A stretch of 64,000 nucleotides of DNA from an uncultured Anaerolineales bacterium (lineage in GTDB: Bacteria > Chloroflexota > Anaerolineae > UBA1429), in NCBI GenBank assembly GCA_964651255.1, contig CAZYWU010000001.1, forward strand, positions 131,890 to 195,889. Direction: 5' to 3'. Of this stretch, positions 16,170 to 31,999 are shown one piece after another. Within the stretch, counting starts at the first letter, position 1, and each line of letters starts with the position of its first letter. The notes under the pieces were generated by a model, which worked only from the letters and a program-made list of their open reading frames with translations, was not told where the DNA came from and did not search any database. The position numbers and the translations under genes are program-made.

Positions 16170-16183
16170 GATCTTCTCTCCGC

Positions 16184-17182
16184 CTAGGTGATCTGGAGCG
16201 TGTAACTTGTGTGCGCCGGGCGATTTACATCGATGATGCGCTCGATGATCCGCCGGTCGATCTCTCGATCCCCGCTGACGATAATCACACGAAAGGTGTG
16301 CGGGCCGTCGACATTTTCCTCTATTCGAACCTCGCATCCCGTGGCGATGCGCAGATGGGTCGATAGCCCGTCAACGGTGCCTCTCGCCTGGTGCAGCCAG
16401 TTGGCTTTGAGCAGCAACTCTCGTTGTGTCTCCGGCGACCAGTGCTCGTCGACCAGATGGGCCATCCAGTCGTTGAGCCACGGCAGGAACGTCTCCGGTG
16501 CGGTATCTGGATTCAGGAACATGTCCCAGTGGGCAACGATCTGCTGGATTGGGCCGATCAGATCCTCAAAGACCAGCAGATAGCGCCCGATAAAGTCCGT
16601 TTGGGCGTATATCGGCGGAAGGTACTGCAGCCAGCGGCTTGCCCGCGATGGCATACCCACCCAGGGCTGAACAGGCGCCGGTCCCATCACGGTGATCGGG
16701 GCCTCTGGCGGCGGGCCAGCGGGGCTCTCCGGTGGTCGCCTGGAGGCGCGCCGGGTACCCAGCCGCTCCAGCATGGCCAGGTCCACGGGGGGCGACTCTA
16801 TTTCTTGCTCAGGCGGCACCTCTGCTTCTGGCGTTTCTTCGTGCGCTGTCATAGAGGGCTCTTCCGTCACAAGCTGCTCAAAGGTCAGGCGGAATGGCCC
16901 GATCGCGATCACATCGCCGGGCTTGAGGGGCCGCGGCTCGTTAGGGGCCAGGGGCAAGTCGTTCAGCTGCGTCCCGTTGCTGCTGCCGAGATCTTCGATC
17001 CGGTACGGTTCGCGATCGCCCAGGATCCTAGCATGAACCCGCGACACCCAGGCGTGAGCAAGAACCAGGCTGGCCTGGGTCGAGTCGCGGCCAATCAGGA
17101 CCAGCGGCTCCTCAATCGTATACTCTCTGGCCGGTTCGTCGGGTGACACGATCACCAGCCTGTAACGAGGTTGCTGAGTCAT
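16184..17182 (-). CDS. CIS baseplate wedge protein, P2 gpI-like (Afp12-type), with N-terminal FHA domain
   Basis: N-terminal FHA (LVLIGRDSTQASLVLAHAWVSRVHARI...SSNGTQLN), a Pro-rich linker, and a C-terminal Tail_P2_I-like domain (FLPWLNDWMAHLVDEHWS...). ATG at 17182, 10 nt after the baseplate-J stop. Confidence 0.75.
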   Translation of the reverse strand: MTQQPRYRLVIVSPDEPAREYTIEEPLVLIGRDSTQASLVLAHAWVSRVHARILGDREPYRIEDLGSSNGTQLNDLPLAPNEPRPLKPGDVIAIGPFRLTFEQLVTEEPSMTAHEETPEAEVPPEQEIESPPVDLAMLERLGTRRASRRPPESPAGPPPEAPITVMGPAPVQPWVGMPSRASRWLQYLPPIYAQTDFIGRYLLVFEDLIGPIQQIVAHWDMFLNPDTAPETFLPWLNDWMAHLVDEHWSPETQRELLLKANWLHQARGTVDGLSTHLRIATGCEVRIEENVDGPHTFRVIIVSGDREIDRRIIERIIDVNRPAHTSYTLQIT

Positions 17183-17192
17183 CTCGTCAGCC

Positions 17193-19178
17193 TCATTCCA
17201 CCATGATCTCGACCTGGTGAATATCGGAAACAACGACCTCGTGCGCCAGCAAGTCGATCTTGCGGTCCGCCTGGTGGGCACGATCCTCGTCGTCGATCCA
17301 ATACATGTCGATGTTCTGAACGTTGAGCAAGCCCTCTACCTTTTGGATACAGCTGTAGAGATCGGAAAGGTACAACTCGCGGCCGAAAGGCCATCCGGTG
17401 CCCGCCGGCCCGCCACGGAGCGGGTTCACGAACCGGTCCAGCGCTGAGCGGATGTCCGCACCCAGGCGCCGTTCATCGACCTCCGGTCGCGCTATGACCT
17501 GTGCGCTGATACGGATGCGCTTGTAGCCTGCAGCCTGTACCTCAAGCTGGGTCGTCAGCAGGCGGCGGGCGTTCAGAAACGCCGTGATCCGCTCCTGGAG
17601 GTCGGATGAAAGCGCCAGCCGGGGCAGGGGAATGTAGTGGGTGGCCTCCTCTTCAGGCAGGTTCGGAATCACGAGCACGTACACCTGGCCAGGGCCACTG
17701 CGGTCCGCTCCCATACCCGCAAAGGCCGTCTGGAGGCAACACACACGGGCAACCTCGCCCTTGAAGGCATCCAGGGTGAGGAACTCATAGTCCTCCGGCG
17801 TGACCGCGCGGTAACGCGATCGCAGCAGGTTGCGGGCCCGAAACATGGCCTGTTCGAGTGTCTCCTGATCCAAACCGCCCTGTGCTGCTGTGCGGTTTGA
17901 GGTGCGGTCGATGTAGGCCAGCGCCGCACGCGGCTCGGTGATCGAGGCTGCCCGCACATTGCCTGCCGTACCGCCGCCATAGCGGTAGCGCGAGAACCGG
18001 AGCTCAGCCCCGCGTGGCGGCAGGGCACCGTAGCGCAACACGGTACCGTCGCGCTGCCGGAGTGCGGGTCCAAAGCGTACCTCGCCGGTCGCGCTGTCCA
18101 GCGCGTAATGACGGTCCTGAGGGCCAGATTCGGCGAGGGTTTCAACCTCCTCCCATGGCTCCCATCCCTCCATGCCCGGCATCCAGATTTCGACGCGCTC
18201 ATCCGCGTGGCGCGGCAGGACGGGCGTGTGTTCCAGATGGAACACTTGGCCAGGAGACCCGTCGCTCCTGCCCAGCGCCTCATTGGCGATTTCTGTGGCA
18301 TGCGAGGCCATCACGGTCGCGCCCCAGGTCACCATTTCCAGACGCCGCAGAATGGGCGAGGTGGCGTAGGGGCGCTGATCTTCGCGCGGCGGCGTCACCT
18401 GACAGCGGATCCAGTAGGCTTCGATGCCATTGATCTCGGAGCGCGACATGACAGGCAGGTGCATCCGGACCTGTCCGGTAAAGCTCATACCGCCGGTCGA
18501 GTCCACCTCAACGTCCGTGTCGCGCCAGCCATTGGCGGTCCATGCCTGCCAGACGATGGGCGGCGATTCGGGGATGATATTCAGTCCCCCGGCCCGCACG
18601 GCAGCCATGTCCAACCCGATATAATGATGGTCCAGATTGACGTCGAACCCGACGTACAGCGCGTCGCCCTCGGCGGGGCGGTCCGGGCTGAATACGGAGA
18701 ACTCGCCGCTCAGCCGGGCCAGGGGCACCTCGTGATAGGCCATGCCGCCGTCGGCGCTGCGATAGCGCGTGACGATGTGCAGCAGCCGGGCGGGGCGGAT
18801 CTCCAGGCTCTCCTCGGTGGTAAAGACTACCGCCTCGCCGCCGGCTCGTGACGTGGCTGTGGCGGTGCCTCGCGGGACCGTGATGGTCTGCTGTTGTGGC
18901 GCGGAGAGGTAAAAGGTCACCGGCACAGAGGCAGCCTGCGGTGGCTCGAGTTGGATGCCCAGCAGGTTGAGCAGTTCGATATAGTGCCGCGCCGGCATCT
19001 GGTTGACCCGGTAGAGCAGGATATCGACCATCCATGCGAACAACTCAATCAGAGTGACGCCCGGGTCGCTGACGTTGTGGTCCGTCCATTCCGGACAATA
19101 CAGCGGGATGCGCCTCTTGGCCTCATCGACCAGGTCCTGAAAGGAGCGATCGTCGAGCGGCTGCGTGGGTAACGGCAT
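17193..19178 (-). CDS. CIS baseplate protein, phage baseplate J / gp6-like (Afp11-type)
   Basis: 661 aa with the N-terminal PLYCPEWTDHNVSDPGVTLIELFAWM motif of the baseplate-J family (TIGR02243-like). Confidence 0.85.
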   Translation of the reverse strand: MPLPTQPLDDRSFQDLVDEAKRRIPLYCPEWTDHNVSDPGVTLIELFAWMVDILLYRVNQMPARHYIELLNLLGIQLEPPQAASVPVTFYLSAPQQQTITVPRGTATATSRAGGEAVVFTTEESLEIRPARLLHIVTRYRSADGGMAYHEVPLARLSGEFSVFSPDRPAEGDALYVGFDVNLDHHYIGLDMAAVRAGGLNIIPESPPIVWQAWTANGWRDTDVEVDSTGGMSFTGQVRMHLPVMSRSEINGIEAYWIRCQVTPPREDQRPYATSPILRRLEMVTWGATVMASHATEIANEALGRSDGSPGQVFHLEHTPVLPRHADERVEIWMPGMEGWEPWEEVETLAESGPQDRHYALDSATGEVRFGPALRQRDGTVLRYGALPPRGAELRFSRYRYGGGTAGNVRAASITEPRAALAYIDRTSNRTAAQGGLDQETLEQAMFRARNLLRSRYRAVTPEDYEFLTLDAFKGEVARVCCLQTAFAGMGADRSGPGQVYVLVIPNLPEEEATHYIPLPRLALSSDLQERITAFLNARRLLTTQLEVQAAGYKRIRISAQVIARPEVDERRLGADIRSALDRFVNPLRGGPAGTGWPFGRELYLSDLYSCIQKVEGLLNVQNIDMYWIDDEDRAHQADRKIDLLAHEVVVSDIHQVEIMVE

Positions 19179-19185
19179 AGTAGCG

Positions 19186-19581
19186 CTACTCCTCGGGAAT
19201 CAGATAAAAGGGGTACACCAGGCTGCGGCTGGAATGGGTAGACCGGATTGTATACCTCACATTGATTAACATGCGGGCTGTATCCTCCGGGTCAGGGGAT
19301 GCGGTCACCTGCTCGACCTGGATTCGCGGTTCCCAGCGCCCCAGGGCCAGCCGCACAAAGCGCTCGGCCTGGGCGATGGTCTGTAGATTGTTGGGTGCAA
19401 AGACGATCTCATTCAGCCGGCAGCCGAACTCTGGGCGCATGACGCGCTGGCCGGGGGAGGTCATCAGGATGATGCGGATCGATTCCTCAATCTCCTGCTC
19501 CCCCGACACGGTGGCGATGCGACCGCGATGGTCCAGCCGCGGCGGAAAGGCCCAGCCTCTTCCGATGATATCGTCCGACAC
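19186..19581 (-). CDS. CIS baseplate wedge protein, gp25/GPW lysozyme-like (Afp9-type)
   Basis: 131 aa with the GRGWAFP...RPEFGC motif of GPW_gp25. Confidence 0.85.
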   Translation of the reverse strand: MSDDIIGRGWAFPPRLDHRGRIATVSGEQEIEESIRIILMTSPGQRVMRPEFGCRLNEIVFAPNNLQTIAQAERFVRLALGRWEPRIQVEQVTASPDPEDTARMLINVRYTIRSTHSSRSLVYPFYLIPEE

Positions 19582-19613
19582 GTGATGCTCCTTATCGCTG
19601 CTGAACGAAGGCG

Positions 19614-20018
19614 CTACCCTCCGGCCATGACCGTGCCCGTGGCGATCACGGTTCCGGCCGGGGCCGGGTTGATGTCATCGCAGGTCCGCGCGGAATCCCC
19701 GTTCCGCGCGACTCCCTGACCATTGACCAGCACCGTCGTGCTGCCCATCACAATGGTAGCCAGGTTGGTGGGCGGCACCTGAAAGCTTGGGCCCCCAATA
19801 GGTATGTGCGGCGGCTGGTTCACCGCCGTGCTATTGACCGTGGCGACCGGCATGCCCCCGATCATTACGTTGCTGCTGAGCCCTCCGTTGATCATGCCGT
19901 TGAATGGATGCCCGGGCGTTGGCGTTGGCACAGGACCGCCCGGCGAGGGCACCATCACGATGTGCGTATCCATCGCGGTGACCATGTCCCCCATTTTCGC
20001 GATCGGCTGTGCTGGCAT
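19614..20018 (-). CDS. PAAR-domain spike-tip protein (Afp10-type)
   Basis: 134 aa, Gly/Pro-rich with repeated xxGxP..G blocks and ARNGDS.C, typical of PAAR cones. Confidence 0.75.
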   Translation of the reverse strand: MPAQPIAKMGDMVTAMDTHIVMVPSPGGPVPTPTPGHPFNGMINGGLSSNVMIGGMPVATVNSTAVNQPPHIPIGGPSFQVPPTNLATIVMGSTTVLVNGQGVARNGDSARTCDDINPAPAGTVIATGTVMAGG

Positions 20019-20030
20019 GATGCTCGCCTG

Positions 20031-21731
20031 CTACGGGTTCAGCTGGATCATGGCACCCTTGATCGTCAGGTTGCCGCTGGCCTCTATTTCCATGTTCGCA
20101 CCAGCCTTGATGCTGACGTTCGTGCCCCCTTCGATCTCCAAGTCACCGTCGCCCTTGATCGTGATCTTTCGCCCATTATCGTCCAGAGATAGTACGGCGC
20201 CGCCCGAGGTCGTAATCTCCACCTTGCCATCATCGTCGTGCAGCACCAGGATGTGACCGCCGGCGGTCTCGATCTGGACAAAGGCCTCGTTTTCCTCCGC
20301 CAGAGTGATCTTGTGTCCCACTCGTGTGACCAGGGCGCGCTGGACGATACTCCCGTTGGCTACTGATGTAGCCCTGTCGATCGGGGTGGCATCCTGGCCG
20401 TTCCAGAGGCCGCCAATCACGACCGGGCGTTCGATGTCTCCCTGCTCAAAAGCCACCAGGACCTCGTCATTGACCTCGGGCAACCAGTAGATGCCACGAT
20501 CCGGACCGGCGCCCGTGCCGATGACGCGCGCCCAGGGGCTGCTCAGGTCCGGGTTCAGCCACGGGAACTTGACCGTGACGCGTCCCATCTCGTCGGGATC
20601 GTTGATATCGGTAACGATACCCGTCATCACTGGCCAGCTTGTACCGGGTCGTACGTCCCTGTCGAGCAGTCGCGCCAGCGTGTCGTCGCGGCGGCCGCGC
20701 ACGGTAAAGTACGTGACATAGTCGCGCTCTGTATTCCACACATGTCTGGCCGTGGTGACCCGATACGTGCCGCTGAACCGGTTCCCCAGCGCGGTGATGT
20801 TCGCCATCTTGCGGGCCTGCAACTCGGGCATGCCAAAGCACTCGCCTTCGGCCTCGACAAAGGCGCCGTCGTACTCGTCCAGTATGGCCTGTGCCAGTTC
20901 ATCCGCCTCGGCCTGGTCCGCGACACTGGTGGCGACAGTCAGCTCGCTGGCACTGCCAAAGACATTCTCTGCCAGGCTGCCGCCCGTGCCTTGCTCTCCG
21001 ATCGATGGCGCGGCCTCGCCCGATGTCGCCCGGCCCACGATCTCGTTTTTCGTGGAAGGGTCCCAGCCCCGCACCTGCACCTCACTGACCTGCTCGCCCA
21101 GGCTGAGGATGGGCCGGAAACTGCGCAGGTTCTCGCCCCACTCAAGATTGACAGTTTCGCCCTGTGCCGTGCCCGCCTTGAAGCAGAGGGTGCGACCCTC
21201 GACATAGACGTCATAGCCGATTCTGCGCGCTCGCTCGCGAAGAAACGCCATGTGGGTTTGGCCGTGCTGGAACACGTGCTTGTGCTCGGTCGATGTCGCC
21301 TCGACGTCCGCGCGCAGCTGCACCTGACTGGCGACATCGGACGCGATGGCGCTGTCGGTCATGTTGGTGTAGGTTCTGGTGATGGCACCGCGATGCAGGC
21401 GATGCGACCGGTCGTAGGCGCGCACCACCAGATCGGCGACTGTGCCCTCGCGAAAGTCAGGCTCGATCCCGGTGATCTCACCGTCAAAGAGCGCGGTCTC
21501 CCCGCGGCCCTGTTCATCAGCGACGCCCACTTCGAGGCTGGCCCCCAGGTCAAAGGGCCCGTTGTTGATCAGCTCGGCCCCCGTGTCGTGCACGTTCAGC
21601 ACACACATTGCCGGGAGCGTCAGGCTGCTCTCGACCTCGACCCGGTAGAGCTCGTCCATGACGGCGGTCTGGAGCGAGGTCCCGTTGATTTTGACATAGA
21701 GTTGTCGACTCAGGGCTGCATCGCGGCTCAC
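20031..21731 (-). CDS. VgrG-like central spike (gp27/gp5 fusion, phage late-control-D-like; Afp8-type)
   Basis: 566 aa with a gpD/VgrG N-terminal region and a C-terminal beta-helix repeat (GGAVLSLDDNGRKITIKGDGDLEIEGGTNVSIKAGANMEIEASGNLTIKG). Confidence 0.9.
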   Translation of the reverse strand: MSRDAALSRQLYVKINGTSLQTAVMDELYRVEVESSLTLPAMCVLNVHDTGAELINNGPFDLGASLEVGVADEQGRGETALFDGEITGIEPDFREGTVADLVVRAYDRSHRLHRGAITRTYTNMTDSAIASDVASQVQLRADVEATSTEHKHVFQHGQTHMAFLRERARRIGYDVYVEGRTLCFKAGTAQGETVNLEWGENLRSFRPILSLGEQVSEVQVRGWDPSTKNEIVGRATSGEAAPSIGEQGTGGSLAENVFGSASELTVATSVADQAEADELAQAILDEYDGAFVEAEGECFGMPELQARKMANITALGNRFSGTYRVTTARHVWNTERDYVTYFTVRGRRDDTLARLLDRDVRPGTSWPVMTGIVTDINDPDEMGRVTVKFPWLNPDLSSPWARVIGTGAGPDRGIYWLPEVNDEVLVAFEQGDIERPVVIGGLWNGQDATPIDRATSVANGSIVQRALVTRVGHKITLAEENEAFVQIETAGGHILVLHDDDGKVEITTSGGAVLSLDDNGRKITIKGDGDLEIEGGTNVSIKAGANMEIEASGNLTIKGAMIQLNP

Positions 21732-21747
21732 ATTGATAACCTCGCTG

Positions 21748-22407
21748 CTATTCCATCGGCGGGATGATGATCAGCCGTCCGGTGCGCAGGTGCAAAGGAT
21801 CGTCTATCCCGTTGGCCTGGGCGATCTGTCGCCACTTGGTGCTGTCTCCGTACGCGTCATAGGCGATGAGATCGAGCCGGTCGCCCGCATCGAGCATGCG
21901 TGTGGTCGGGGCGATCCCGCCCCCGGACGTGGGGTTCTGCCCCAGAATGTCAAAGGCATCGCTCACCTGCTGCAGGCTGATCTGGATCGTGCTGCGCACC
22001 GCGGTACCGGAGGGCAGAAACAGGCCGATCTGCTCGCTCATCTGCGTGATGACCGCCTCAAAGGAAAAGGCGCCCCAGATAAACATGCAATGGGGCGGTT
22101 CACTCTTGCCCGTGCGCGGGTCCGTGCGCGCGTCGTCTACCATCATCATGTTCCAGAGATGCGCTGTCAGAGAGCGGACATCCTGGCCCGCGTCCAGTGT
22201 GTCAAAGAGCAAGCGCAATGTCAGAGTCTGAGCGCCGCCCTGCTGGAACCGGATGTGCGGGATGTTCTTGCCTTTGGTATCTGCCTGCTCGTAAGAGTTA
22301 GTCTTGGCGATGGTGTACTCGTACGGGTTGAACATGCAGGGCACAGACTCCCCCGTGTTCTTGTTCACGAGCACTGCGGGCGCCAGACCTCCTCGTGTTG
22401 TCGGCAT
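21748..22407 (-). CDS. CIS tube-initiator / LysM-domain protein (Afp7 / P2 gpX-U-like)
   Basis: N-terminal PCMFNPYEYTI motif and a C-terminal LysM (DRLDLIAYDAYGDSTKWRQIAQANGIDDP). Confidence 0.85.
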   Translation of the reverse strand: MPTTRGGLAPAVLVNKNTGESVPCMFNPYEYTIAKTNSYEQADTKGKNIPHIRFQQGGAQTLTLRLLFDTLDAGQDVRSLTAHLWNMMMVDDARTDPRTGKSEPPHCMFIWGAFSFEAVITQMSEQIGLFLPSGTAVRSTIQISLQQVSDAFDILGQNPTSGGGIAPTTRMLDAGDRLDLIAYDAYGDSTKWRQIAQANGIDDPLHLRTGRLIIIPPME

Positions 22408-22421
22408 CTCTACGTTTCTCC

Positions 22422-24503
22422 TTAGCGCAGGCGCGAGCCACCCATGCGCTCACGCTCCACACGCAAACGATCTCTCAGCTTGCTGAACACACGTTCCGCC
22501 AGTTCTTCGATATCCGGAGCCCGTTCCGCTTGCGGAGACTCTTCAGATTCTGCCGGGGCAGTCTCCGTAGAGGAATCTGCGCGGGTTGTATCCGCGGGCG
22601 CCTCGGCGCGCCGGATAGGCGGGCCCGGCGAGTCCCCTCGATCTCGTGTAACGCGAGTTGGTGCAGCCATGGATGCGACCACCTGATCGATAGGCAGTAC
22701 CTGCCTCGGAAGTGGGTGGGGAGCGCCGGGCGTCAACCTCTGTTGCTCAGCCGTAGCCAGTTGGGCAGGGGTGCGGTCCGGGAAACCGGTCTGCCTGCGC
22801 ACAGGCGGATGTTGCGATGTCGGCGTCACGGCGGACAAGGCAGATCCTCCTGCTGAGGCTGGCGGCGTCTGGGCCGGCGGTACCTCCTGTACCCATTGCG
22901 CCGACTCGCGCGGTGACCGCGGCTGGATCGGAGGCGCGCTGGAGGGCGGGAGCTGTGCTATAGCTGGCTCAGGCCAGGGCGGTATCGTCTCAGGCTCGGT
23001 GCTCGCCTCAGTCGCAAAGCGCTGCAACTGCGCCCGGTAAGCCTCGGCCAGATCCAAGCTCGCAGGGACGCTCTGCACAGGAGCATGTTCCGAACCGGGT
23101 GCCCGCCGTTGTTCGGCCGCTGCGGTGACGGCTGGTGCCTGCACATCGGGACTGCGCCTCACAACCGGCTTTACTGGAGGCGCGTCGGGTTCGACCGCGG
23201 GCTCAAACGATGGTGCCTCCGGTCTGGTCAATGCGCCTTCTGGTGTCTCTGGGAGCGCCGCGGCAGCGGCCCGGATATGGTGTAAAGCATCTCTCTGTTC
23301 TACCCGCGCTGGCGACGGCTCGATGGCGTCAGACTGCAGCGTAACGGCTGGCGCGGGCGCCATGGGCATCTCGGGAATGGGCTCGCTATCGCTTGGCACA
23401 GGCTGCGTATCCGCCGGTCGTGCCACCTGCTCGCGCGTCGCCTCAGGCGTGGCGGTGGGGCCGGCGGGAGCAGATCTCTCTTCAGGTGCACGGTAGACCG
23501 CCTGTGCCCGGGAGATCGCCTCGGACTCGCGCCGCAGCGGTTGCGCGGAGCTAGATGCGTCCGAGGGGCCCGCCGTTCCAGTCTCCGCCGGCGGCGGCGT
23601 CTCGGCCGTCGTGTCCGCAAGATCAGTCGCGGGCCTTACTGGCACGCCTGGCGTCCCAGTATCGAAATCCGGCACAGCCGTCTCGCGCCTCACGGTCTGG
23701 GAAGTCGTTGGACCCTGCCCCTGGGGCGATACGGTTGCCTCTGTCGTCGAAACCGTGCTCTGCGTTTCCGCGGTACGCCGGATCAGTGGCGCTGCGAGCT
23801 GAGAGGTCGGCCTGTCCGCTGTGCCCTCGGCACGGGCTGGCCCTCGTGCCGCCTGTGTTCGGACCGTGTCCGTTGGCGTGCCCGCTTGTTGTGCCGGAGG
23901 CTGTTCATAGAGCTGCGAGACGGGTTTGGGCCGCGCCCCGGGCGCGGGAGGCGTGGCAGATGCCGTTGCGGAGGGCCGCGCGCCTCCTCGTGCCTGCCCA
24001 GCGGCCTGCGTACCTGGTGAGGCCTGGCTTGATGCCGGCGACCGGGGCCGCTGGAGCGCTCGCCGTACCTCTTCCACGGTAAAGCCGGGCCGTGGTGGGG
24101 CCAGAGGTTCCGAAGCTGGCTCTGCGTCCGGTGAGAGGGGACCCCCATCTCTCGCGCCCAGGGCGGACACCGCGCCCGTGAATCCTGACTGGTGGCCACG
24201 ACCGCGCTCAAGTATCTCTACTTCCGGAGTCATGAGCGCCAGCGCAGGGGATTGAGATGGTTCTGTGGCCGGTGCAGAGGCGGGCCTGGCCGGCTCGATG
24301 GTGCGCTCGATGACCGGTGACACGCGCGCCGGCGTTGGCTCGGCAATGCTCTGCACGACTGGATGCCTTGTCAGCGTCATGGGGGTATATCGCGTGGCCT
24401 GCCGCTGCAGAGGCCCGGGTTCCGGCTCCGGTATGATGTACCGGCGCTTGATATGCCGGGCGAAAGCCACGCTGACAAGTCGCAGGCCGTTCCCGTCTGT
24501 CAT
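22422..24503 (-). CDS. proline/alanine/threonine-rich low-complexity protein in the tape-measure (Afp14) position
   Basis: 693 aa. Position between tube 2 and the LysM protein matches the P2-like tube–tape-measure–U/X order. ATG overlaps the tube-2 stop (ATGA). Only the short N- and C-termini look non-repetitive. Confidence 0.5.
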   Translation of the reverse strand: MTDGNGLRLVSVAFARHIKRRYIIPEPEPGPLQRQATRYTPMTLTRHPVVQSIAEPTPARVSPVIERTIEPARPASAPATEPSQSPALALMTPEVEILERGRGHQSGFTGAVSALGARDGGPLSPDAEPASEPLAPPRPGFTVEEVRRALQRPRSPASSQASPGTQAAGQARGGARPSATASATPPAPGARPKPVSQLYEQPPAQQAGTPTDTVRTQAARGPARAEGTADRPTSQLAAPLIRRTAETQSTVSTTEATVSPQGQGPTTSQTVRRETAVPDFDTGTPGVPVRPATDLADTTAETPPPAETGTAGPSDASSSAQPLRRESEAISRAQAVYRAPEERSAPAGPTATPEATREQVARPADTQPVPSDSEPIPEMPMAPAPAVTLQSDAIEPSPARVEQRDALHHIRAAAAALPETPEGALTRPEAPSFEPAVEPDAPPVKPVVRRSPDVQAPAVTAAAEQRRAPGSEHAPVQSVPASLDLAEAYRAQLQRFATEASTEPETIPPWPEPAIAQLPPSSAPPIQPRSPRESAQWVQEVPPAQTPPASAGGSALSAVTPTSQHPPVRRQTGFPDRTPAQLATAEQQRLTPGAPHPLPRQVLPIDQVVASMAAPTRVTRDRGDSPGPPIRRAEAPADTTRADSSTETAPAESEESPQAERAPDIEELAERVFSKLRDRLRVERERMGGSRLR

Positions 24504-24931
24504 GACACCGTCACCATCTCGTAGGCCAGTTCCAGAGATTCTATCGCGATCGCGGAACTGCCCGCACTGAGCTCGGGCCCGCTCCACTTGGTGGGAAAGG
24601 CCATGTGAAAGTCCCAGCGGATAACTGGCTCACCGGCGTCGTCCAACAGCGTCACCGACACCTGCTTACGGGCCGCCATCAGCTGGCCCTGAATCACCTG
24701 GGTGTACCAGGCCATCAGGTCGCTGCCGGTGGCCACGCCTCGTTTGAGCGTCAGCGTGCCTCGGCGAACGCGCCCGGGCAGAGGGTGCGATCCCACGTTA
24801 TAGCCGCCCTCTTTCTGCTCCTGGATCTCTACCTCCAGTGCCGGGAGGGTGCATTCGGTGAATGTCGCTCCCGGAAGACCGTCGATCTGGACGCTAAAGC
24901 GATAGGCGGGATGGGCATCCGGACGTTCCAT
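24500..24931 (-). CDS. CIS inner tube protein, paralog 2 (Afp5/T4 gp19-like)
   Basis: 143 aa with YRFSVQIDGL...FTECT..., homologous to the tube protein at 25459-25902. Confidence 0.85.
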   Translation of the reverse strand: MERPDAHPAYRFSVQIDGLPGATFTECTLPALEVEIQEQKEGGYNVGSHPLPGRVRRGTLTLKRGVATGSDLMAWYTQVIQGQLMAARKQVSVTLLDDAGEPVIRWDFHMAFPTKWSGPELSAGSSAIAIESLELAYEMVTVS

Positions 24932-25089
24932 CAGGTCCCGACCTCATTGGTGTGAATTCTGTCGACCTCGCGCACCCATCGCCGGCGCTCGGGATGTTCG
25001 AGTGACAGGATGTCGTCCCGTGACCAGTGCAAGTAATAGGCCAGGTACGCTACCTCCTCGAGCATCCGGTCGAGGGGGTAGCGCGTCAT
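24931..25089 (-). CDS. 52-aa conserved-looking microprotein, translationally coupled between the 119-aa ORF and tube 2
   Basis: The internal ATG at 25089 overlaps the stop of the upstream ORF (ATGA). Its own stop overlaps the tube-2 ATG (TGATG). The longer 69-aa ORF in the track would overlap the upstream gene by 55 nt. Confidence 0.4.
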   Translation of the reverse strand: MTRYPLDRMLEEVAYLAYYLHWSRDDILSLEHPERRRWVREVDRIHTNEVGT

Positions 25090-25445
25090 TCCCCCAGTGG
25101 CACGATCTCCTGTCGAAAGACCGTATGACAGTTCGGGCATTCCACCTCGATCGTATCGGCGCCGGTCTCGTTGATACGCCTGTAAAAGTCTTGCAGGTAG
25201 GCCATATCTGCGGCGAACAGGTTTTCGATGACATGAGGGGTCACCTGGTCCAGACTGCCCAGGCGAGTGACGACGCGCGACAGCAGCAGTATCGCCAGGT
25301 AAGCCTCGTTAGATCGCACGCGCATGTCCCGGAGCGGGGCGATCTCATCCATTGCCGTGGCCAGCCTCATCACGCCCTGGCGATGGACCCGCCCCTCTCC
25401 GTCGACGTACCCGCGCGGAAGCTCGAAGGGGAACTCTGTCTGCAT
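25086..25445 (-). CDS. 119-aa CIS-associated hypothetical protein (Afp6-position) with C-terminal CPNC zinc-ribbon-like motif
   Basis: Located between the two tube genes. GGAGG SD 5 nt before the ATG. No confident family assignment. Confidence 0.55.
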   Translation of the reverse strand: MQTEFPFELPRGYVDGEGRVHRQGVMRLATAMDEIAPLRDMRVRSNEAYLAILLLSRVVTRLGSLDQVTPHVIENLFAADMAYLQDFYRRINETGADTIEVECPNCHTVFRQEIVPLGE

Positions 25446-25458
25446 AAGGGCCTCCGGT

Positions 25459-25902
25459 CTAGCTTACGCGGAATAGGCCCTCATGGGTGATCACGAGCTC
25501 CTCGACCCCCAGCTCATTGCTATCCGCCTTGATGGACGGACCGGACACCTTGACTGGCCAGGCTTTCTCAAAGTTCCAGCGGGCCACCTCGTTCAGGCCC
25601 TGGTCGAACATGATGATCGATCCCTCACGGCGGGCCTCGTCGACCTTGCCCTGAACGACCAACTCACGCCAGTCCCAGATGTCCATGTTGTCGGTGATAC
25701 CGCGCTTGAGCGTGATGTTCTCCCATTTGAGCCGGCCGGGGATTTTGAGCACATGCTCTCGCCCGGCTTCATCGACGACCTTGTGCTCGATCACCTCGTT
25801 CTCGGAGCCGATGCCGGAGCACTCGGTAAAGTACCCGGTGACCTCGCCCGCAACATCAATCGCATAGTGAAAACCAACAAGCGGATCTTTTCGGTCCGTC
25901 AT
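25459..25902 (-). CDS. CIS inner tube protein, paralog 1 (Afp1/T4 gp19-like)
   Basis: 147 aa, FHYAIDVAGEVTGYFTECSG...LKRG, the classic eCIS/T6SS-Hcp-like tube signature. Confidence 0.9.
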   Translation of the reverse strand: MTDRKDPLVGFHYAIDVAGEVTGYFTECSGIGSENEVIEHKVVDEAGREHVLKIPGRLKWENITLKRGITDNMDIWDWRELVVQGKVDEARREGSIIMFDQGLNEVARWNFEKAWPVKVSGPSIKADSNELGVEELVITHEGLFRVS

Positions 25903-25938
25903 GGATCGCTCTCCTTGCTCTACTTAGCTGGGCTGGCG

Positions 25939-27504
25939 CTAGGCCGCGGCGGGCCCCGCCCACTGGCTGATACGGAAGATCACAAACTCCGCCGGCTTGA
26001 CCGGGCAGATGCCGATCTCGATGATCAACTGGCCCAGGTCGCGCACTTCGACCGGATTCAGTTCCTCATCGCACTTTACATAAAACGCCTCATTGGGGGT
26101 TGTGCCAAAGAGTGCGCCGGATGTCCACACTGTACGCAGGAAGGCCGTCACATCGCGCCTGACGCGCGCCCAGAGGTCCGGGTCGTTAGGCTCAAAGACG
26201 ACCCACTGTGTGCCGCGCTCGATGGATTCCTCCACCATGTTAAAGAGGCGACGCACATTGATGTATCGCCACGCCGGATCGCTGCTCAGCGTGCGGGCGC
26301 CCCAGATGCGGATTCCGCGGCCGGGGAAGGCACGGATGCAGTTCACCCCGATGGGGTTCAGCGCATCCTGCTCGCCTCGGGTGAGCTGAACCGGAAGGCC
26401 AGTGGCGCCGCGGATCACCTCGTTGGCCGGGGCCTTGTGCACCCCGCGCTCGGCATCGCTGCGCGCATAGACACCCGCAATGTGGCCAGAAGGCGGAATG
26501 CGGATGCTCCCCTTACCCTTGACCATATCTGCGGTCTCGATCCAGGGATAGTACAGCGCAGCGTACTTGGTATCATAGTTGCTGGACTGGCGCCACTGCA
26601 GCATCGCCTGAGGACTGAGATCGGGCGGGCAGTCCAGAATAGCAAAGCTGTACTTGCTCTGCTCGCAGTGCTCGTACAGCGCCTGCTGTACCGCCTGGAC
26701 ATCCTGCAGCGACATCTCGCCAGACTGGAAGCTCTGCATCAGGTCCGGCACCGCCACCATCGTGACCTCGTCTACGGGCGTGAGGCCACCCAGCCCGGTG
26801 CGTTCTGCCACTTCGCCCCGATAGGCCGCCACGGTGAGCGCTTTGGTCTCGATCTTGCCGCCCTGCAGGGTATACTCGCCGGCGCGCGGTCTGCGCTCCG
26901 CCAGTGTGCCCTTGCTTTGCTGCACCTGCACCGTGATGAACCGAGACCGCGTATTGACCACCGTCTCGACATTCTGATCGCCCTTGCCCAGAGTTAGATC
27001 CTGAAAGGTCTCTGTACCGCCGGGAGCTGAGATGATCAGCGTAAAGGTCTCGGCGGCCGGGTCCTCAGGCTCGCGCACTGTGACCTTGATCTCGTTGCCG
27101 CTCGGGCCGCCAGACCTGGCCTTGATCTGAAGCGTGTCGCCGCCGCCTTCCGCGCGCGCCGGTAGTGCCGCGACAGCCGGCGTGGCCAGCCGTTCGTCCA
27201 CAGAGGCGCCCAGTGCCTTGACAGAGACTACGTAGCAGCGACTACCCCCGTTCGCAAAGTAACCATAGACCGAATAGGGCAGGTAGGCCCCCTCGACAAA
27301 CCCACCGAATTTGTCGGTGTACTGGGTCCAGTTGGTGATGGCCACGGGGCGATTCTGGAGCGAGGTCACCTCGCCATTGCTGACTTCCTCAGCCTTTTCG
27401 GTAAAGCCGATAAAGGCTGCGACAGCCGTGCCCACGGCCTCGATGGGCCGGGTTCCGCCCTCACGTTCTTCGATGTAAACACCAGGTGACAGATAAGTTG
27501 GCAT
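25939..27504 (-). CDS. contractile sheath protein (Afp2-4 / phage tail sheath family)
   Basis: Starts MPTYLSPGVYIEE (the ATG at 27504 is preceded by AGGA). 521 aa. Only one sheath gene is present in the locus. Confidence 0.9.
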   Translation of the reverse strand: MPTYLSPGVYIEEREGGTRPIEAVGTAVAAFIGFTEKAEEVSNGEVTSLQNRPVAITNWTQYTDKFGGFVEGAYLPYSVYGYFANGGSRCYVVSVKALGASVDERLATPAVAALPARAEGGGDTLQIKARSGGPSGNEIKVTVREPEDPAAETFTLIISAPGGTETFQDLTLGKGDQNVETVVNTRSRFITVQVQQSKGTLAERRPRAGEYTLQGGKIETKALTVAAYRGEVAERTGLGGLTPVDEVTMVAVPDLMQSFQSGEMSLQDVQAVQQALYEHCEQSKYSFAILDCPPDLSPQAMLQWRQSSNYDTKYAALYYPWIETADMVKGKGSIRIPPSGHIAGVYARSDAERGVHKAPANEVIRGATGLPVQLTRGEQDALNPIGVNCIRAFPGRGIRIWGARTLSSDPAWRYINVRRLFNMVEESIERGTQWVVFEPNDPDLWARVRRDVTAFLRTVWTSGALFGTTPNEAFYVKCDEELNPVEVRDLGQLIIEIGICPVKPAEFVIFRISQWAGPAAA

Positions 27505-27605
27505 CTCTCTATCCTTTGACTGATAGCAGGCCGGGGACATGACCGGCGTGCGACGAGGTCCACTGGTCCGGAGCTATAGAGCGATACCCTCCTTTCTTGT
27601 GGTGG

Positions 27606-28436
27606 CTATATCTCGAGGTCGTATGATTCCAGGCTTTGCGGCGGCACGGGCACGCGGTGCGTCGCCTCGCGGCCATCCGCCTGCACTCGGAGCCGGTATT
27701 CTCCGCCCGATAGCCCACCAAAGCGATAGCGTCCAAAGTGGTCGGTGAGGCAAGTCTGCCCCGTCTCTATCACGCTAACTGTGGCCCTGGGTACAGCAGG
27801 GCCACCCCTGGCCTGAAAAACGATGCCCGCGATCTCAAAGGTCGTCGACCGCGTAGCTTCGGCAGCATTGCGGTCAAGAACATCCACGCGCCGAGAGATG
27901 ACCCACGGGCTCGTAAAGGCCACGGCACGCTCCATGGCCAACGTGACTGTATAGTTGATCGAGGGCCTGAGCTGGTTCTCCATGACGCCCCAGAGATCGG
28001 GCAGGTTCTCGATGGCGCGCGAAGGCTGAGCGGTTCGCGCGTGCACCGGATAGGGCTGATTGCGCAGGCCGGGCTCAAGGATTTCCGTGTCCAGCGTCGG
28101 CGTGCCAGCCAGCGCACCAAGCACGCGCCACAGTATCGCGTGTTCATCCTCCACCTGATTCTGCGTCCAGACGGTGACCAGGTACGAGAGATCGTAGCGC
28201 AGAGGCGCCAGCCGCTTGCTGACCTGGCCTTCAGAATCACGCTCGACGATCCACTCTTGTGAACGAAGCTCCGTATTCTCCCGTATGTCGTACAGGTAAA
28301 AGTTGATCGTCGGGCGCGTCAGTCCAGCAGCCCAGTCGCCGGTGGGCTGGTCAAAGCTCACCGTGACACTGTCCGTGTCAAAGTTGCCGTGCTTTAGCAC
28401 CAGATTCCGGATGGTCTCGTCGAGCTGATTGATCAT
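27606..28436 (-). CDS. CIS tail terminator/cap, DUF4255 (Afp16/Pvc16-like) with carboxypeptidase-regulatory-like C-terminal domain
   Basis: N-terminal LTRPTINFYLYDI DUF4255 signature. C-terminal GIVFQARGG...GRYRFGGLSGGEYRLRV beta-sandwich. Confidence 0.8.
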   Translation of the reverse strand: MINQLDETIRNLVLKHGNFDTDSVTVSFDQPTGDWAAGLTRPTINFYLYDIRENTELRSQEWIVERDSEGQVSKRLAPLRYDLSYLVTVWTQNQVEDEHAILWRVLGALAGTPTLDTEILEPGLRNQPYPVHARTAQPSRAIENLPDLWGVMENQLRPSINYTVTLAMERAVAFTSPWVISRRVDVLDRNAAEATRSTTFEIAGIVFQARGGPAVPRATVSVIETGQTCLTDHFGRYRFGGLSGGEYRLRVQADGREATHRVPVPPQSLESYDLEI

Positions 28437-28505
28437 CCCCTGCCTCGAATTAGCTCTAGCACCTGACTAGCCTGCAATGACGCGCCGAGGTGTTACCCTT
28501 CTGGG

Positions 28506-29195
28506 CTATGCTTCCTCCAACTCTTCCTCTTCTTGCCGGCGCACTGTCTGTACCGCTTCTTCCTCCTCCTCCTCGTCCTCGGCCTGGCGCTGGACAGCGT
28601 CGCCTCCGGTGTCTGGCGCCCTGCTGGCCAGGCGCTGCACCACCTGATCGGCCATGGCGTCCGCCTCGAGTTCGGCGGGGTCATTGGCAGCACCTACATC
28701 CAGCTTGGCGCCATCTTGCTGCTGTGCAACGTGGGCGAGTTCGTGAGCCAGCAAGCGCTGCCCGTCCCCGGTCGCCGGGTTGTACTGGCCGGCGGAGAAA
28801 AAGATGTCGTTGCCCCGCGTAAAGGCCCGTGCTGACAGCTCAGAGTTCAGCGTATCAGCCTCAGAGTCGTTGTGTATGCGAACCCCCGCAAAGTCGGCCC
28901 CAAAGGCTCCTTCCATGCTCTGTCTGGTCGCGTGATCCATGGCTGACCCCGATCCAGCCTGGGAATCGATGGCGCGCTCCACATGCTCGGGGGCCACAAA
29001 GGCGTCTTCCTGTGCAAAGCGCCGCGCGATCCGGTTGCCCGCGCGCCGGGCGACCTCGCGCAGGACGTGCGGTGTCAGCACCCGCGCCAGACGAGATGGC
29101 CGGGCGCGTGGCGACGTTTCGGCGTCGACTGTGTTCGAGGGCTGCTGTACAGCCAGTCTACTTCTTGTGCGGATCCATTCATGCTCAGTACTCAT
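28506..29195 (-). CDS. DUF4157-like protein with HExxH motif and polyglutamate C-tail (possible CIS effector/payload)
   Basis: LLAHELAHVAQQQ zincin-like motif inside a DUF4157-type core. C-terminus RQAEDEEEEEEAVQTVRRQEEEELEEA. ATGA overlap with the ATPase stop. Confidence 0.65.
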   Translation of the reverse strand: MSTEHEWIRTRSRLAVQQPSNTVDAETSPRARPSRLARVLTPHVLREVARRAGNRIARRFAQEDAFVAPEHVERAIDSQAGSGSAMDHATRQSMEGAFGADFAGVRIHNDSEADTLNSELSARAFTRGNDIFFSAGQYNPATGDGQRLLAHELAHVAQQQDGAKLDVGAANDPAELEADAMADQVVQRLASRAPDTGGDAVQRQAEDEEEEEEAVQTVRRQEEEELEEA

Positions 29196-31315
29196 CGTCC
29201 CGGCCTCCCCGATGATGTGTCGTGGATTGCCACGACACGACGGACGAGTTCCATTCCAAAGTCATCTTCATCGATCAGTTTGCCGAGCTTTTGAAACTCG
29301 CGGCGCACGCCCCACAAGAGATGACGCATGGCAACGATCTCGCCATCCCTGGCCGCCAAAAAGGCGGCGTTCACGAGGGCGTTGCGGATGCTGCCGCCAG
29401 AGAGCCGAAAACGGCCCGCAAGCGAGGCCAAGTCCACATCAGCCGCCAGGGGCAGTTGCGCAGGCACGGTGCGCTCCCAGATGAGGCGGCGCGACGCTTC
29501 GTCCGGAAACGGGAATTCGATACTGAACTGCAGCCTGCGCAGGAACGCCTCATCCAGATTCTGTCTCAGGTTGCTGGTGAGGATCACGACGCCGTCGTAT
29601 TCTTCCACCTTTTGCAGCAGGTAACTGATCTCTATGTTCGCGTAGCGGTCATGGGCATCTTTGGTCTCGGAGCGCTTGCCAAAGAGCGCATCGGCCTCGT
29701 CAAAGAGTAGGATCGCGTTCGAGTCGCGGGCCAGATCAAATATCCTGTCCAGGTTCTTTTCGGTTTCGCCGATATATTTGCTGACCACGCCCGAGAGATC
29801 GATCTTGTACAGGTCCAGCGACAGATCGGTGGCGATCACCTCTGCGGCCATAGTCTTGCCCGTGCCCGAGGGCCCAGCGAACAAGGCTGAAAGGCCCTGG
29901 CCCCGCGCCGATTGGCGTCCAAAGCCCCAGGCACCATAGACCACGTGTCGGAAGCGAAACTGGTCGCACATCTCGTGAATCTGAGCCGTGCGGTCGGCAG
30001 GCAAGACGAGGTCTTCCCAGGTGTGTCTGGCGACGATCTGGCTGGCAAGATCACCCAGCCTCACGGCACTCACGGCCCGAGAGGCGGCCGCCAGATCATC
30101 AAAGGTGATGACAGGCTCCGAGGAGCGACGCTGCCAGGCATGTTCCGCGGCACCGCGGGTGGCAACGTGGATCTGTGCGCCATCGAGCCTGTAGCGTGCT
30201 GCCAGGACTGGCAGGTCGTCCGGATCAGCCAGGGCGCGTCCTTGAAGGGCGCGCTGCCAGAGTACCAGGCGCCCCTCATAGTCCGGTGCCGGCAGGTCGA
30301 GCACCGCCACGCGCACCGCCTCCGAGGCCGGCTGCGGCAGGCTCGTGTGCCTGGGTGTGTGCCAGACCACGGTGAGCCCGGGGTGTTCCAACAGGGTTGC
30401 CCATTCGAATGCGGCATAGCTGTCGTGAATGGCAACACGATCTGTGATCTCAACATACAGGACAGCGTCGTACAGCAGCGCATCTCGCGCGGCTTGTTGC
30501 ACGCGCAGCAGCACCGCCTCTTGCTGATCCGAATCGTCAACGGAGAGCGTCACCATGGGGCGAGCTTGCTGTGCGGCGCAGTCCTGGGCCAGAGCGCATG
30601 ATGTCCAGGAGCGATCGGAACGCACCTGGATCCACAGCGGCCGGTCGCCACTGGTGATAAGCGACCAGATCGCTTCACGCGCCTCCGCCGGGTATAGATC
30701 GGGCAGCCAGGTGCTATCTTCGCCCCTCCAGTAAGGTGAAGCCGAGGCTGGACCCTCCTTGTCTGGCGACAGCAAGAAGCGAACAACCTGCGGGGCAACC
30801 TGAGCCGTACGTCTCAGAAGCGTATCGGGTCCCTCAGCGGGCGGTGACAGGATCATGAGCCCGTAACGCGAGAGGGTAGCCTCCCCATGAAAGAGGGTGC
30901 GCGCGGCCAGCCGTGCGCCAAGATCAGGCCACAGCAGAGCGAGAAGGAGGTCGACGATGGGGCGTTTGCAGGTAACGTCATCCTGGAGGAATCCAAAGAT
31001 GCGTTCGTAACGGAGGTCGAACTCGGGTAACAGACAGATGAGCAGTATCTGAGACTCGGTCGCGCTCAGATCAAAGACACGTTTCAGATGCGTCCAGCGA
31101 TCTTCTTCGGAAAGAGGTGGAAAGGCAGCAGGAGCAGAAGTTACCAGTGACGCACCGAAGGGTTGCTCTAAAAGTTGAAGAAACTCATGATCGGTAATAA
31201 ATAGGCCACGAAACTCCCCATTGTCTGGCGCGCGCTCTTCATACAACCTTCTGGCGGTTTGCACCAGAAAGCCATCGATGCGCCGCAGTTCGTTGAGAAG
31301 GGTGCCCCCGACCAT
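29192..31315 (-). CDS. CIS AAA+ ATPase (Afp15-type) with large N-terminal extension
   Basis: 707 aa. C-terminal AAA+ module with Walker A GPSGTGKT and Walker B ILLFDEADALFGKR. N-terminal roughly 440 aa is non-ATPase. Confidence 0.85.
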   Translation of the reverse strand: MVGGTLLNELRRIDGFLVQTARRLYEERAPDNGEFRGLFITDHEFLQLLEQPFGASLVTSAPAAFPPLSEEDRWTHLKRVFDLSATESQILLICLLPEFDLRYERIFGFLQDDVTCKRPIVDLLLALLWPDLGARLAARTLFHGEATLSRYGLMILSPPAEGPDTLLRRTAQVAPQVVRFLLSPDKEGPASASPYWRGEDSTWLPDLYPAEAREAIWSLITSGDRPLWIQVRSDRSWTSCALAQDCAAQQARPMVTLSVDDSDQQEAVLLRVQQAARDALLYDAVLYVEITDRVAIHDSYAAFEWATLLEHPGLTVVWHTPRHTSLPQPASEAVRVAVLDLPAPDYEGRLVLWQRALQGRALADPDDLPVLAARYRLDGAQIHVATRGAAEHAWQRRSSEPVITFDDLAAASRAVSAVRLGDLASQIVARHTWEDLVLPADRTAQIHEMCDQFRFRHVVYGAWGFGRQSARGQGLSALFAGPSGTGKTMAAEVIATDLSLDLYKIDLSGVVSKYIGETEKNLDRIFDLARDSNAILLFDEADALFGKRSETKDAHDRYANIEISYLLQKVEEYDGVVILTSNLRQNLDEAFLRRLQFSIEFPFPDEASRRLIWERTVPAQLPLAADVDLASLAGRFRLSGGSIRNALVNAAFLAARDGEIVAMRHLLWGVRREFQKLGKLIDEDDFGMELVRRVVAIHDTSSGRPGR

Positions 31316-31386: not shown

Positions 31387-31415
31387 ATCATAGCGCATGG
31401 TCAACTGGGTGTCAA
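31387..31415 (-). promoter_or_regulatory. near-consensus sigma70 promoter (TTGACA-17-TATGAT) driving the CIS operon
   Basis: On the minus strand, TTGACA at 31415-31410 and TATGAT at 31392-31387, exactly 17 bp apart, about 72 bp upstream of the ATPase ATG (31315). Confidence 0.6.
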
Positions 31416-31492
31416 CGGATTTTCGAGCGGGGTGGCGTGGAACGTGGTATAATCGCGGGCATCGACGCTTCGATGCATTATCCAGGGAAAAC

Positions 31493-31999
31493 ATGACACA
31501 CTTGTTCGCGATAGTGGGCTGGCATAACGCAGGCAAGACGACCGTGGTCGAGGGCCTGGTCCAGGAATTCCGACGAAGCGGCGCGCGCGTGGCGGTCGTC
31601 AAGCATTCGCGTGAGGGGTTTGACCTCGACCATCCCGGAACCGATACCTGGCGCTTTGCTCAGGCGGGCAGCGACGCGGTTGTCATCGCCAGCAAGAGCG
31701 CTTTGGCCTGGTTTGAGAACACTGTGCAGGAAGTGACTCTCCAGGACATCGTCGCGCGGCTGGATCCCAGCATCGACGTGGTAATCGCGGAGGGGTTCAA
31801 GCGTGAGGCCTGTCCCAAGATCGAGGTCATGCGTGCTGCTACGGGGACCGATCCGATCGTCTCTGCTCAAGAGCTGCTTGCCATCGTCACCGACGATGTC
31901 ATGGACCCCAGACCGGCACCAAAGTTTGGGTTCGACCATATCTGCGAGCTCGCGGACTACCTGGCGGAGCAGGGGCTGGGCCCACGGCCTCGACCCTAG
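31493..31999 (+). CDS. mobB: molybdopterin-guanine dinucleotide biosynthesis protein B
   Basis: FAIVGWHNAGKTT P-loop and the MobB fold. Divergent from the CIS operon. Confidence 0.8.
   Translation: MTHLFAIVGWHNAGKTTVVEGLVQEFRRSGARVAVVKHSREGFDLDHPGTDTWRFAQAGSDAVVIASKSALAWFENTVQEVTLQDIVARLDPSIDVVIAEGFKREACPKIEVMRAATGTDPIVSAQELLAIVTDDVMDPRPAPKFGFDHICELADYLAEQGLGPRPRP

Follow-up and report, generated by a model that had tools for sequence, protein, structure and literature searches.

A short, toxin-less DUF4157 protein in the ATPase-cap slot of an Anaerolineales contractile injection system: a candidate loaded accessory

What does a contractile injection system (CIS) do with a DUF4157 protein that lacks a toxin domain? 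The question is raised by a 229-amino-acid (aa) protein encoded between the ATPase and cap genes of a CIS cluster, in a 64,000-nucleotide stretch of DNA from an uncultured Anaerolineales bacterium (contig CAZYWU010000001.1 of assembly GCA_964651255.1, positions 131,890 to 195,889; hereafter the window). That the protein is a member of PF13699 (eCIS_core, formerly DUF4157) in the canonical genomic setting of that family is secure, and the DUF4157 domain, its motif, its linkage to CIS and its likely cargo status are already published. As to function, we see roughly an even chance that this short form is an accessory loaded with the help of its leader and of the ATPase, serving as an adaptor and/or a processing peptidase. 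A classical toxin role is unlikely, since an effector domain is missing, the gene is kept in the way of a core component and the best-characterised small homologue, Sle2, is a non-toxic adaptor.

The gene and its slot in related loci

The gene and its two neighbours are the following.

28506..29195, minus strand: whole gene, DUF4157/eCIS_core protein of 229 aa (open reading frame (ORF) list, translation, PF13699 match at E 1.7e-31)
29192..31315, minus strand: upstream gene, Afp15/Pvc15-type AAA+ ATPase with WHD and AAA parts (Pfam PF22977 and PF00004; CDC48/PAN-like NCBIfam matches; ATGA overlap)
27606..28436, minus strand: downstream gene, Pvc16_N cap/terminator with a C-terminal CarboxypepD_reg domain (Pfam)

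The ORF runs from an ATG to a stop codon at 28506-28508, the plus-strand translation of the same interval being riddled with stops. Its start is supported by the conserved N-terminus that orthologues share in the alignment, and GGGAGG lies 8 nucleotides (nt) 5' of it. An earlier note on this DNA had assigned the protein to DUF4157, and rightly so: in a hidden Markov model search PF13699 matched residues 86-162 with 108.7 bits (cut-off 22), spanning profile positions 2-78 of 79, while no NCBIfam model matches the protein. The zincin-like LLAHELAHV motif that the note had read inside the DUF4157 core is present (residues 148-156, with HELAH at 28731-28745 on the minus strand), as is the Asp/Glu-rich stretch at the C-terminus (residues 201-229), and the location between ATPase and cap genes is borne out by Pfam matches on both neighbours. 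Coupling to the ATPase gene is likewise real as a 4-nt overlap, the ATG of the DUF4157 gene sharing ATGA with the ATPase TGA. The 'stoichiometric co-expression' drawn from it over-reads the overlap, which orthologues do not always keep although they keep the tight adjacency. Only 69 nt lie between the DUF4157 stop codon and the cap start, and a scan found no minus-strand terminator-like site between the ATPase and sheath genes. A full CIS gene set lies on the same strand, that is, the gene shows the genomic association with a CIS operon that marks the family. The DUF4157 core profile, run against the six-frame translation of the window, found no second DUF4157 copy and no nearby effector.

To see what other clusters carry at this position, related loci were sampled with the cap protein as query and without reference to DUF4157. 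Among the 15 that had enough upstream DNA, 13 carry a DUF4157 gene directly upstream of cap, eight of them short with an acidic tail and five long (544-1002 aa), in agreement with the earlier statement that DUF4157 recurs at CIS loci. The synteny ATPase-DUF4157-cap-sheath reaches other phyla, and long DUF4157 proteins occupy the ATPase-cap slot also in Accumulibacter, in Acidobacteriota and in another Anaerolineaceae locus. The C-terminal parts of the long slot proteins have no Pfam match except for OmpA-like domains in two of them. In the long proteins, as in loci L099, L106 and L096, EEEE-hQxLRRQ repeats join DUF4157 to C-terminal modules, and in L099 and L106 these repeats recur between later modules. 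The 1002-aa protein of L099 (1904-4954, plus strand), encoded in the same slot as the window gene, has a second HExxH module (VLHEIGHVV) between two acidic LRRQ blocks, followed by a long helical C-terminal region without family match.

Among 349 homologues from a word-seeded search, metagenome bins of Anaerolineae and other Chloroflexota supply the nearest ones that carry a name. When 1.84 billion representatives were searched exhaustively, 66,100 clusters matched at E<=1e-3, of which 47,497 also passed E<=1e-10, so the family is very large and already catalogued. Many relatives (among P0121-P0264) are giant, up to 4,682 aa with three to six DUF4157 copies in a polyprotein-like layout. The 229-aa protein has about 36 residues after its catalytic core (194-229), a short linker and a repeat tail without domain match in Pfam or NCBIfam, and thus lacks the variable C-terminal toxin domain of the polymorphic Photorhabdus virulence cassette (PVC) toxin architecture. 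The short form is nevertheless stable among orthologues from 97% down to about 35% identity, into Actinomycetota and several phyla, which argues against a variable 'warhead'. That a long toxin had recently been truncated was considered and rejected because of the 69-nt gap to the cap start and the persistence of the short form to about 35% identity across phyla. Since long relatives in the same slot join DUF4157 to C-terminal modules by like repeats, the 229-aa protein is equivalent to a polymorphic cargo's constant part, namely the leader, the peptidase and the first of the linker repeats, with no C-terminal module attached.

Leader, zincin core and acidic tail

The protein divides into the following parts. 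Residue numbers are those of the full-length protein; alignments A1/A2 and the first AlphaFold2 (AF2) model omit Met1 and read one lower. Confidence of the models is given as predicted local distance difference test (pLDDT) values.

29073..29195, minus strand: residues 1-41, basic leader, predicted disordered, candidate N-terminal loading signal (AF2 pLDDT about 46-51)
29007..29072, minus strand: residues 42-63, helix with near-invariant G53-N54-R, family consensus GNRxVQRL (alignments A1/A2; AF2 pLDDT 55-60)
28617..29006, minus strand: residues 64-193, compact mini-zincin (gluzincin-like) domain (AF2 pLDDT >90)
28731..28745, minus strand: H151-E152-L-A-H155, the HExxH motif, predicted to give two zinc ligands and the catalytic base (invariant in a 100-sequence alignment)
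28659..28682, minus strand: D172-P-A-E175-L-E-A-D179, glutamate-helix motif with E175 as candidate third zinc ligand (D172, E175 and A178 at least 90% conserved)
28509..28595, minus strand: residues 201-229, disordered acidic tail with the units AVQRQ-AEDEEEEEE and AVQTVRRQ-EEEELEEA (AF2 pLDDT <50)

The mini-zincin domain comprises the Pfam core (residues 86-162, 28710-28940) and the 'glutamate helix' that follows it. It carries the family signature HExxHxxQ...E as H151-E152-L-A-H155-V-A-Q158 and D172-x-x-E175-x-E-A-D, the published signature being HExxHxxQ-E in a zincin core of three strands and three helices (Zhang et al. 2012, PMC3482391). G83, V105, H108, F133, H151, E152 and H155 are invariant in the 100-sequence alignment, in which G53-N54, Q158, Q159, D172, E175 and A178 are at least 90% conserved. 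HExxH is kept in all 120 listed homologues and HExxHxxQ in 118 of them. A core-only AF2 model (pLDDT 89.5, predicted template modelling score 0.85) has three short strands and several helices.

A structure prediction had been proposed as a test of metalloprotease geometry around HExxH, and its outcome is mixed: the core is modelled confidently and its best matches are small zincins, but none of these matches is statistically significant. The abylysin zymogen 4jiu (prob 0.84, E 0.25) came top among PDB entries, which also included a YbeY-like protein, and the BFVD matches were IrrE/M78-like (prob 0.98, E 0.04), SprT-like, a 'peptidase' and a phage DUF4157 protein. Abylysin and the M48 (BepA), M78 IrrE-like and SprT-like proteins resemble the predicted core in size and topology, with HExxH predicted on one helix and the conserved Glu (ExEAD) on the helix after it, although every similarity score remains below significance. 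Against PDB sequences, the core profile listed BepA (M48; E 0.16) and thermolysin (E 0.8) first, both sub-threshold, and the full-length profile gave nothing at E<=1. The core-profile alignment covers HExxH and the strand preceding the active-site helix, which aligns with the 'NAFAF' strand of BepA, and a sub-threshold stretch pairs DxxE175xEAD with BepA NEQEAD, whose first Glu we take to be E201, the third zinc ligand of BepA. The H155-E175 spacing of 20 residues is thermolysin-like and not M48-like. From the model and the conserved residues, the core is predicted to be a minimal gluzincin-type zinc-peptidase domain (H151, E152, H155, E175).

The abylysin zymogen match, together with the speculation of Geller et al. 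that DUF4157 may confer immunity on the producer (PMC8213781), would fit a latency or immunity module in which the tail or a flanking helix blocks the active site, or the protein neutralises a component of the producer. AF2 predicts the tail to be disordered and not docked, and the window scans found no toxin partner encoded nearby. This speculated module strikes us as extremely improbable.

The earlier note had further proposed that the acidic tail is a signal for packaging into the tube lumen. At the DNA level the tail (residues 201-229, VQRQAEDEEEEEEAVQTVRRQEEEELEEA; net charge -11) is a trivial (TCC)n run, and the repeat shows at the level of the protein. In 74 of 82 homologues of the same architecture HExxH is followed by two or more runs of at least three Asp/Glu, and four of the 82 have no acidic runs at all. 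Tandem 'E4-6 + h-Q-x-(R)-R-Q' units number 0-8 in these proteins, with a median period of 13 aa (interquartile range 11-15), and their 208 spacers between acidic runs all contain Gln, 199 of them as [VILMA]Q (VQMQ, AVQTVRRQ and LQTKAVQRQ, for example). Taken from these sequence patterns, the tail is most readily understood as an inter-module linker of the family and not as a packaging signal, because like repeats separate modules in L099, L106 and L096. The DxxExEAD helix precedes the core, and HExxH stands at the C-terminal end, in 22 of the 120 homologues. Such circular-permutation-like variants (P0044, P0059, P0075, P0085 and P0092, for example) run from the DxxExEAD helix through acidic repeats to a core ending in HExxHxxQQ.

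The tail is predicted to be disordered and keeps its character throughout the subfamily, and by our own arithmetic a period of about 13 residues in an extended chain approximates the height of one tube ring, all of which could suit a packaging signal. However, the defined loading signals are N-terminal and proteins with C-terminal deletions still load (bioRxiv 2026.05.27.728243), the copy number varies from none to eight, the repeats are internal linkers in long homologues and, as seen in the examples inspected, they stand N-terminal of the core in the permuted ones. We therefore hold a packaging role of the tail to be very improbable. The description of the E-run/h-Q-R-Q repeat as a family-wide linker may be new; a literature search on DUF4157 and 'acidic' returned nothing relevant, which is no proof that the repeat is undescribed.

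The leader would be the likelier loading signal of the two ends, by analogy with known cargo, because it is predicted to be disordered, is basic and is the fastest-evolving part of the protein, and because Cgo1 and Cgo2 need a disordered N-terminal region. Residues 1-60 contain 13 Lys/Arg and five Asp/Glu, mean pairwise identity is 0.13 in the leader versus 0.51 in the core, and the low pLDDT serves only as a proxy for disorder of the leader, for which sequence similarity to known loading signals would not be expected.

Loaded accessory, assembly factor or toxin

Geller et al. (2021, PMC8213781) defined DUF4157 as a core domain of eCIS whose role was unknown and which often stands next to toxins or N-terminal of them. 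Several family members have been followed experimentally. Cgo1 and Cgo2 fill the lumen of the AlgoCIS tube and leave on contraction (PMC8894135); their loading requires the disordered N-terminal region and the AAA+ protein Alg15 (bioRxiv 10.64898/2026.05.27.728243). In a haloarchaeon, five DUF4157 proteins are secreted in a CIS-dependent manner (PMC11566945), DUF4157 proteins were detected in CIS preparations from Anabaena, and Tme of Streptomyces davawensis, which bears DUF4157, was purified along with spike and tube initiator. In S. lividans, Sle2 (SLIV_17110) is a small, adaptor-like DUF4157 protein, non-toxic in E. coli, that binds both the tube initiator and the tape-measure-like cargo Sle1, the latter at its N-terminus, and that stabilises Sle1, whose abundance depends on it (PMC13277306).

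The 229-aa protein resembles each of these systems in part. It shares with Cgo1 and Cgo2 the order of N-terminal region (here predicted to be disordered), DUF4157 and C-terminal region, as well as an Alg15/Afp15-type ATPase in the locus; however, those proteins measure 498 and 1228 aa and carry large folded C-terminal domains where the 229-aa protein has some 36 predicted-disordered residues. Like Sle2, when compared by description and not by sequence, it is small and has DUF4157 as its sole domain, and its gene belongs to a CIS cluster and stands upstream of the sheath region, although Sle2 adjoins its divergently oriented partner Sle1 whereas the neighbours here are the ATPase and cap genes. 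The PVC-metallopeptidases (PMC3482391, PMC8213781) show the same HMM match, HExxHxxQ-E signature, predicted zincin core, variable leader and CDC48-like ATPase neighbour, but in their classical form a constant N-terminal peptidase is followed by a variable C-terminal toxin, whereas the 229-aa protein ends after two linker repeats.

We thus propose that the DUF4157 gene would be transcribed and translated together with the Afp15-like AAA+ ATPase, which would recognise the N-terminal leader of the 229-aa protein and, while the particle assembles, load the protein either into the lumen of the tube or onto the tube-initiator/spike complex. Once loaded, the protein could serve as an adaptor for other lumen content, such as the 721-aa protein described below, or as a processing peptidase of such content; alternatively, it may be a mere 'carrier' part of a polymorphic cargo without a warhead. 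Its catalytic residues are invariant and it has nothing of its own to release, and a substrate would therefore have to be sought in trans, or in self-trimming. The earlier description as a candidate payload is consequently right at class level, because the gene occupies a cargo slot and belongs to a cargo family with CIS-loaded and secreted members, but the protein has no C-terminal effector domain.

A possible partner is encoded within the same cluster.

22422..24587, minus strand: 721-aa Pro/Ala/Ser/Thr-rich protein in tape-measure position, possible partner or substrate (no Pfam/NCBIfam match)

This protein, which is also Arg-rich, contains eight h-[QR]-R-x motifs, compared with 1.0 +/- 1.0 in 2000 residue shuffles, and its orthologues in L002 and L006 are likewise enriched. 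Around the DUF4157 domain itself, the density of h-[QR]-[RK]-x motifs is about 10 times as high in the 150 residues N-terminal and the 100 residues C-terminal of HExxHxxQ as farther away (144 diverse representatives). The shared motif may point to a link between the 721-aa protein and the DUF4157 protein, and its occurrence in both the tape-measure-position protein and the DUF4157 flanks may be new. The C-terminus of the 721-aa protein is conserved (ELAE+V(F/Y)xKLRDRLRVERER). Its listed GTG start overlaps the second tube gene, and an internal Met (MTDGNGLRL), which aligns with the start of an orthologue, is probably the true start.

One could go further and read the E-run and h-[QR]-R-Q units as sites recognised or cleaved by the DUF4157 peptidase, the 229-aa protein being a trans-acting maturation or release protease, because the motif brackets DUF4157 throughout the family, lies between the modules of long cargo and occurs in excess in the tape-measure-position protein of the same loci. 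We rate this reading as improbable. If it were true, specificity for RR or QR would co-vary with the substrates between lineages. Lineages with hRRQ in their DUF4157 tails do have mostly hRR in the tape-measure-position protein, and hQRQ lineages mostly hQR; this co-variation (Fisher p ~1e-4) is not relied on, because it involves only about four independent lineages and is partly confounded by GC content.

Enrichment of the same short motif in the 721-aa protein would also suit a cytoplasmic assembly factor that never enters the particle, a chaperone or maturation protease working with the AAA+ ATPase in the producer cell and trimming, for example, the tape-measure-position protein at h-R-R-x sites. 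The tight genetic coupling to the ATPase, the core-like conservation of the slot (Pfam itself names the family 'eCIS core'), the catalytic residues kept even in short forms, which own no C-terminal domain that could be released, and the suggestion of Danov et al. that DUF4157 is a chaperone in cis or in trans (PMC11297309) all speak for such a factor. However, every DUF4157 protein examined experimentally is particle-associated or secreted, and the basic leader, predicted to be disordered, resembles loading sequences. On balance, we find a purely cytoplasmic role rather unlikely.

The motif that stays invariant despite the lack of a C-terminal domain to release could equally belong to a true toxic payload, a mini-peptidase injected to cleave a substrate of the target cell, all the more so as this is the sole cargo-class gene in the locus. 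There are precedents, since the DUF4157-annotated C-terminal domain of VgrG2b is a solved gluzincin toxin that needs its catalytic site (PMC6899460) and Zhang et al. consider that some PVC-metallopeptidase domains probably act as toxins (PMC3482391). Nevertheless, the solved VgrG2b domain was not listed in the core-profile search of PDB sequences even at E<=10, the gene is kept in place like a core component instead of varying like a warhead, and domain scans of the window found no immunity-like gene adjoining it. Moreover, Sle2 is non-toxic in E. coli, the secreted haloarchaeal protein Hbor_38720 is not toxic (PMC11566945), and the effect of Cgo1 does not depend on HExxH. An injected peptidase toxin is accordingly an unlikely explanation.

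Several points weigh against the loaded accessory that we favour. The loading, zinc binding and peptidase activity of the 229-aa protein are all inferred, and we know of no CIS DUF4157 domain for which peptidase activity has been demonstrated. The homologue search was seeded by shared 5-residue words and may favour sequences that keep AHELTHV, thereby inflating the invariance of the motif. Unlike the Sle2 gene, the window gene is not adjacent to the tape-measure-like gene, which lies about 4 kb downstream, and the product of the latter looks disordered and Pro/Ala/Ser/Thr-rich, not coiled-coil as the Sle2 partner is. Growth inhibition by Cgo1 is independent of its HExxH metalloprotease motifs (PMC8894135), and DUF4157 is dispensable for loading, given that proteins with this domain or the C-terminal domain deleted still load (bioRxiv 10.64898/2026.05.27.728243).

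The surrounding cluster and the short form as a test object

The CIS is complete, with every gene from 31315 down to 13197 on the minus strand. The order is WHD + AAA ATPase, DUF4157, Pvc16_N cap, sheath, tube and a 96-aa ORF, followed by a second tube gene, the 721-aa protein, CIS_tube/LysM, a VgrG-like protein, PAAR and a gp25-like protein (19186-19581), and finally Baseplate_J, an FHA + Tail_P2_I/CIS12-like protein and a 1046-aa Ser/Thr kinase with FHA and PLAT domains. No match to a tail-fibre (Afp13-like) family was found among the cluster proteins scanned (13197-31315). Two further features were noted.

21748-22407, minus strand: CIS_tube/LysM product of the CIS cluster
31387..31415, minus strand: sigma-70-like promoter match TTGACA-17-TATGAT, 11/12, about 70 nt upstream of the ATPase start (consensus scan only)

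Judged by its sequence and position, the promoter match is the likely start of the CIS operon. A 153-aa minus-strand ORF upstream of the ATPase gene (31478-31939) was rejected as spurious because the plus strand there is occupied by MobB (31397-31999; TIGR00176, E 2.8e-38). Housekeeping genes flank the cluster, with MobB, a GT4 glycosyltransferase, uracil phosphoribosyltransferase (UPRTase) and pyruvate:ferredoxin oxidoreductase (POR) on one side and Lar-type and pyrimidine biosynthesis genes on the other. Synteny of the 5' flank (POR, UPRTase, GT4, MobB) extends to the related locus L002, whose DUF4157 protein is about 52% identical. Because of these flanks and their synteny, the cluster has the look of a chromosomal locus passed on vertically in an Anaerolineae-like lineage and not of a mobile island.

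Three other observations concern individual CIS genes. The CIS12/Tail_P2_I-like baseplate protein (16184-17281, minus strand) begins with its FHA domain, N-terminally placed, while the kinase gene is the last of the cluster (13197-16337, minus strand). These genes resemble the PpkA/Fha control by threonine phosphorylation known from some type VI secretion systems, an analogy that suggests that firing or assembly of the CIS may be phospho-regulated. The fusion of Pvc16_N to CarboxypepD_reg (a beta-sandwich) also occurs in L002 and L006, and in L005 the CarboxypepD_reg domain is a separate gene. Between the tube genes (24944-25234, minus strand, and the gap to 25459) lie small ORFs, one of which, of 96 aa, matches no family. 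At this position related loci carry an ORF of about 120 aa and a DUF6760 gene, and a short DUF6760-like gene may be present, unlisted, between the tube genes of the window.

For annotation, a DUF4157 gene between ATPase and cap is not to be labelled a toxin unless its product has a C-terminal effector domain. What DUF4157 does biochemically is a recognised open question of CIS research, the domain being the mark of thousands of predicted cargo proteins, and the short toxin-less form, having only a leader, a peptidase core and two linker repeats, offers a minimal object on which to test it. The repeat and motif observations provide a cheap test, in which h-Q/R-R-Q peptides (EEEAVQTVRRQEEEE, PPVRRQTGF) and the tape-measure-position protein would be offered to the wild-type protein and to an E152A variant. 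The result of such a cleavage test would bear directly on the long-standing 'releasing peptidase' hypothesis.

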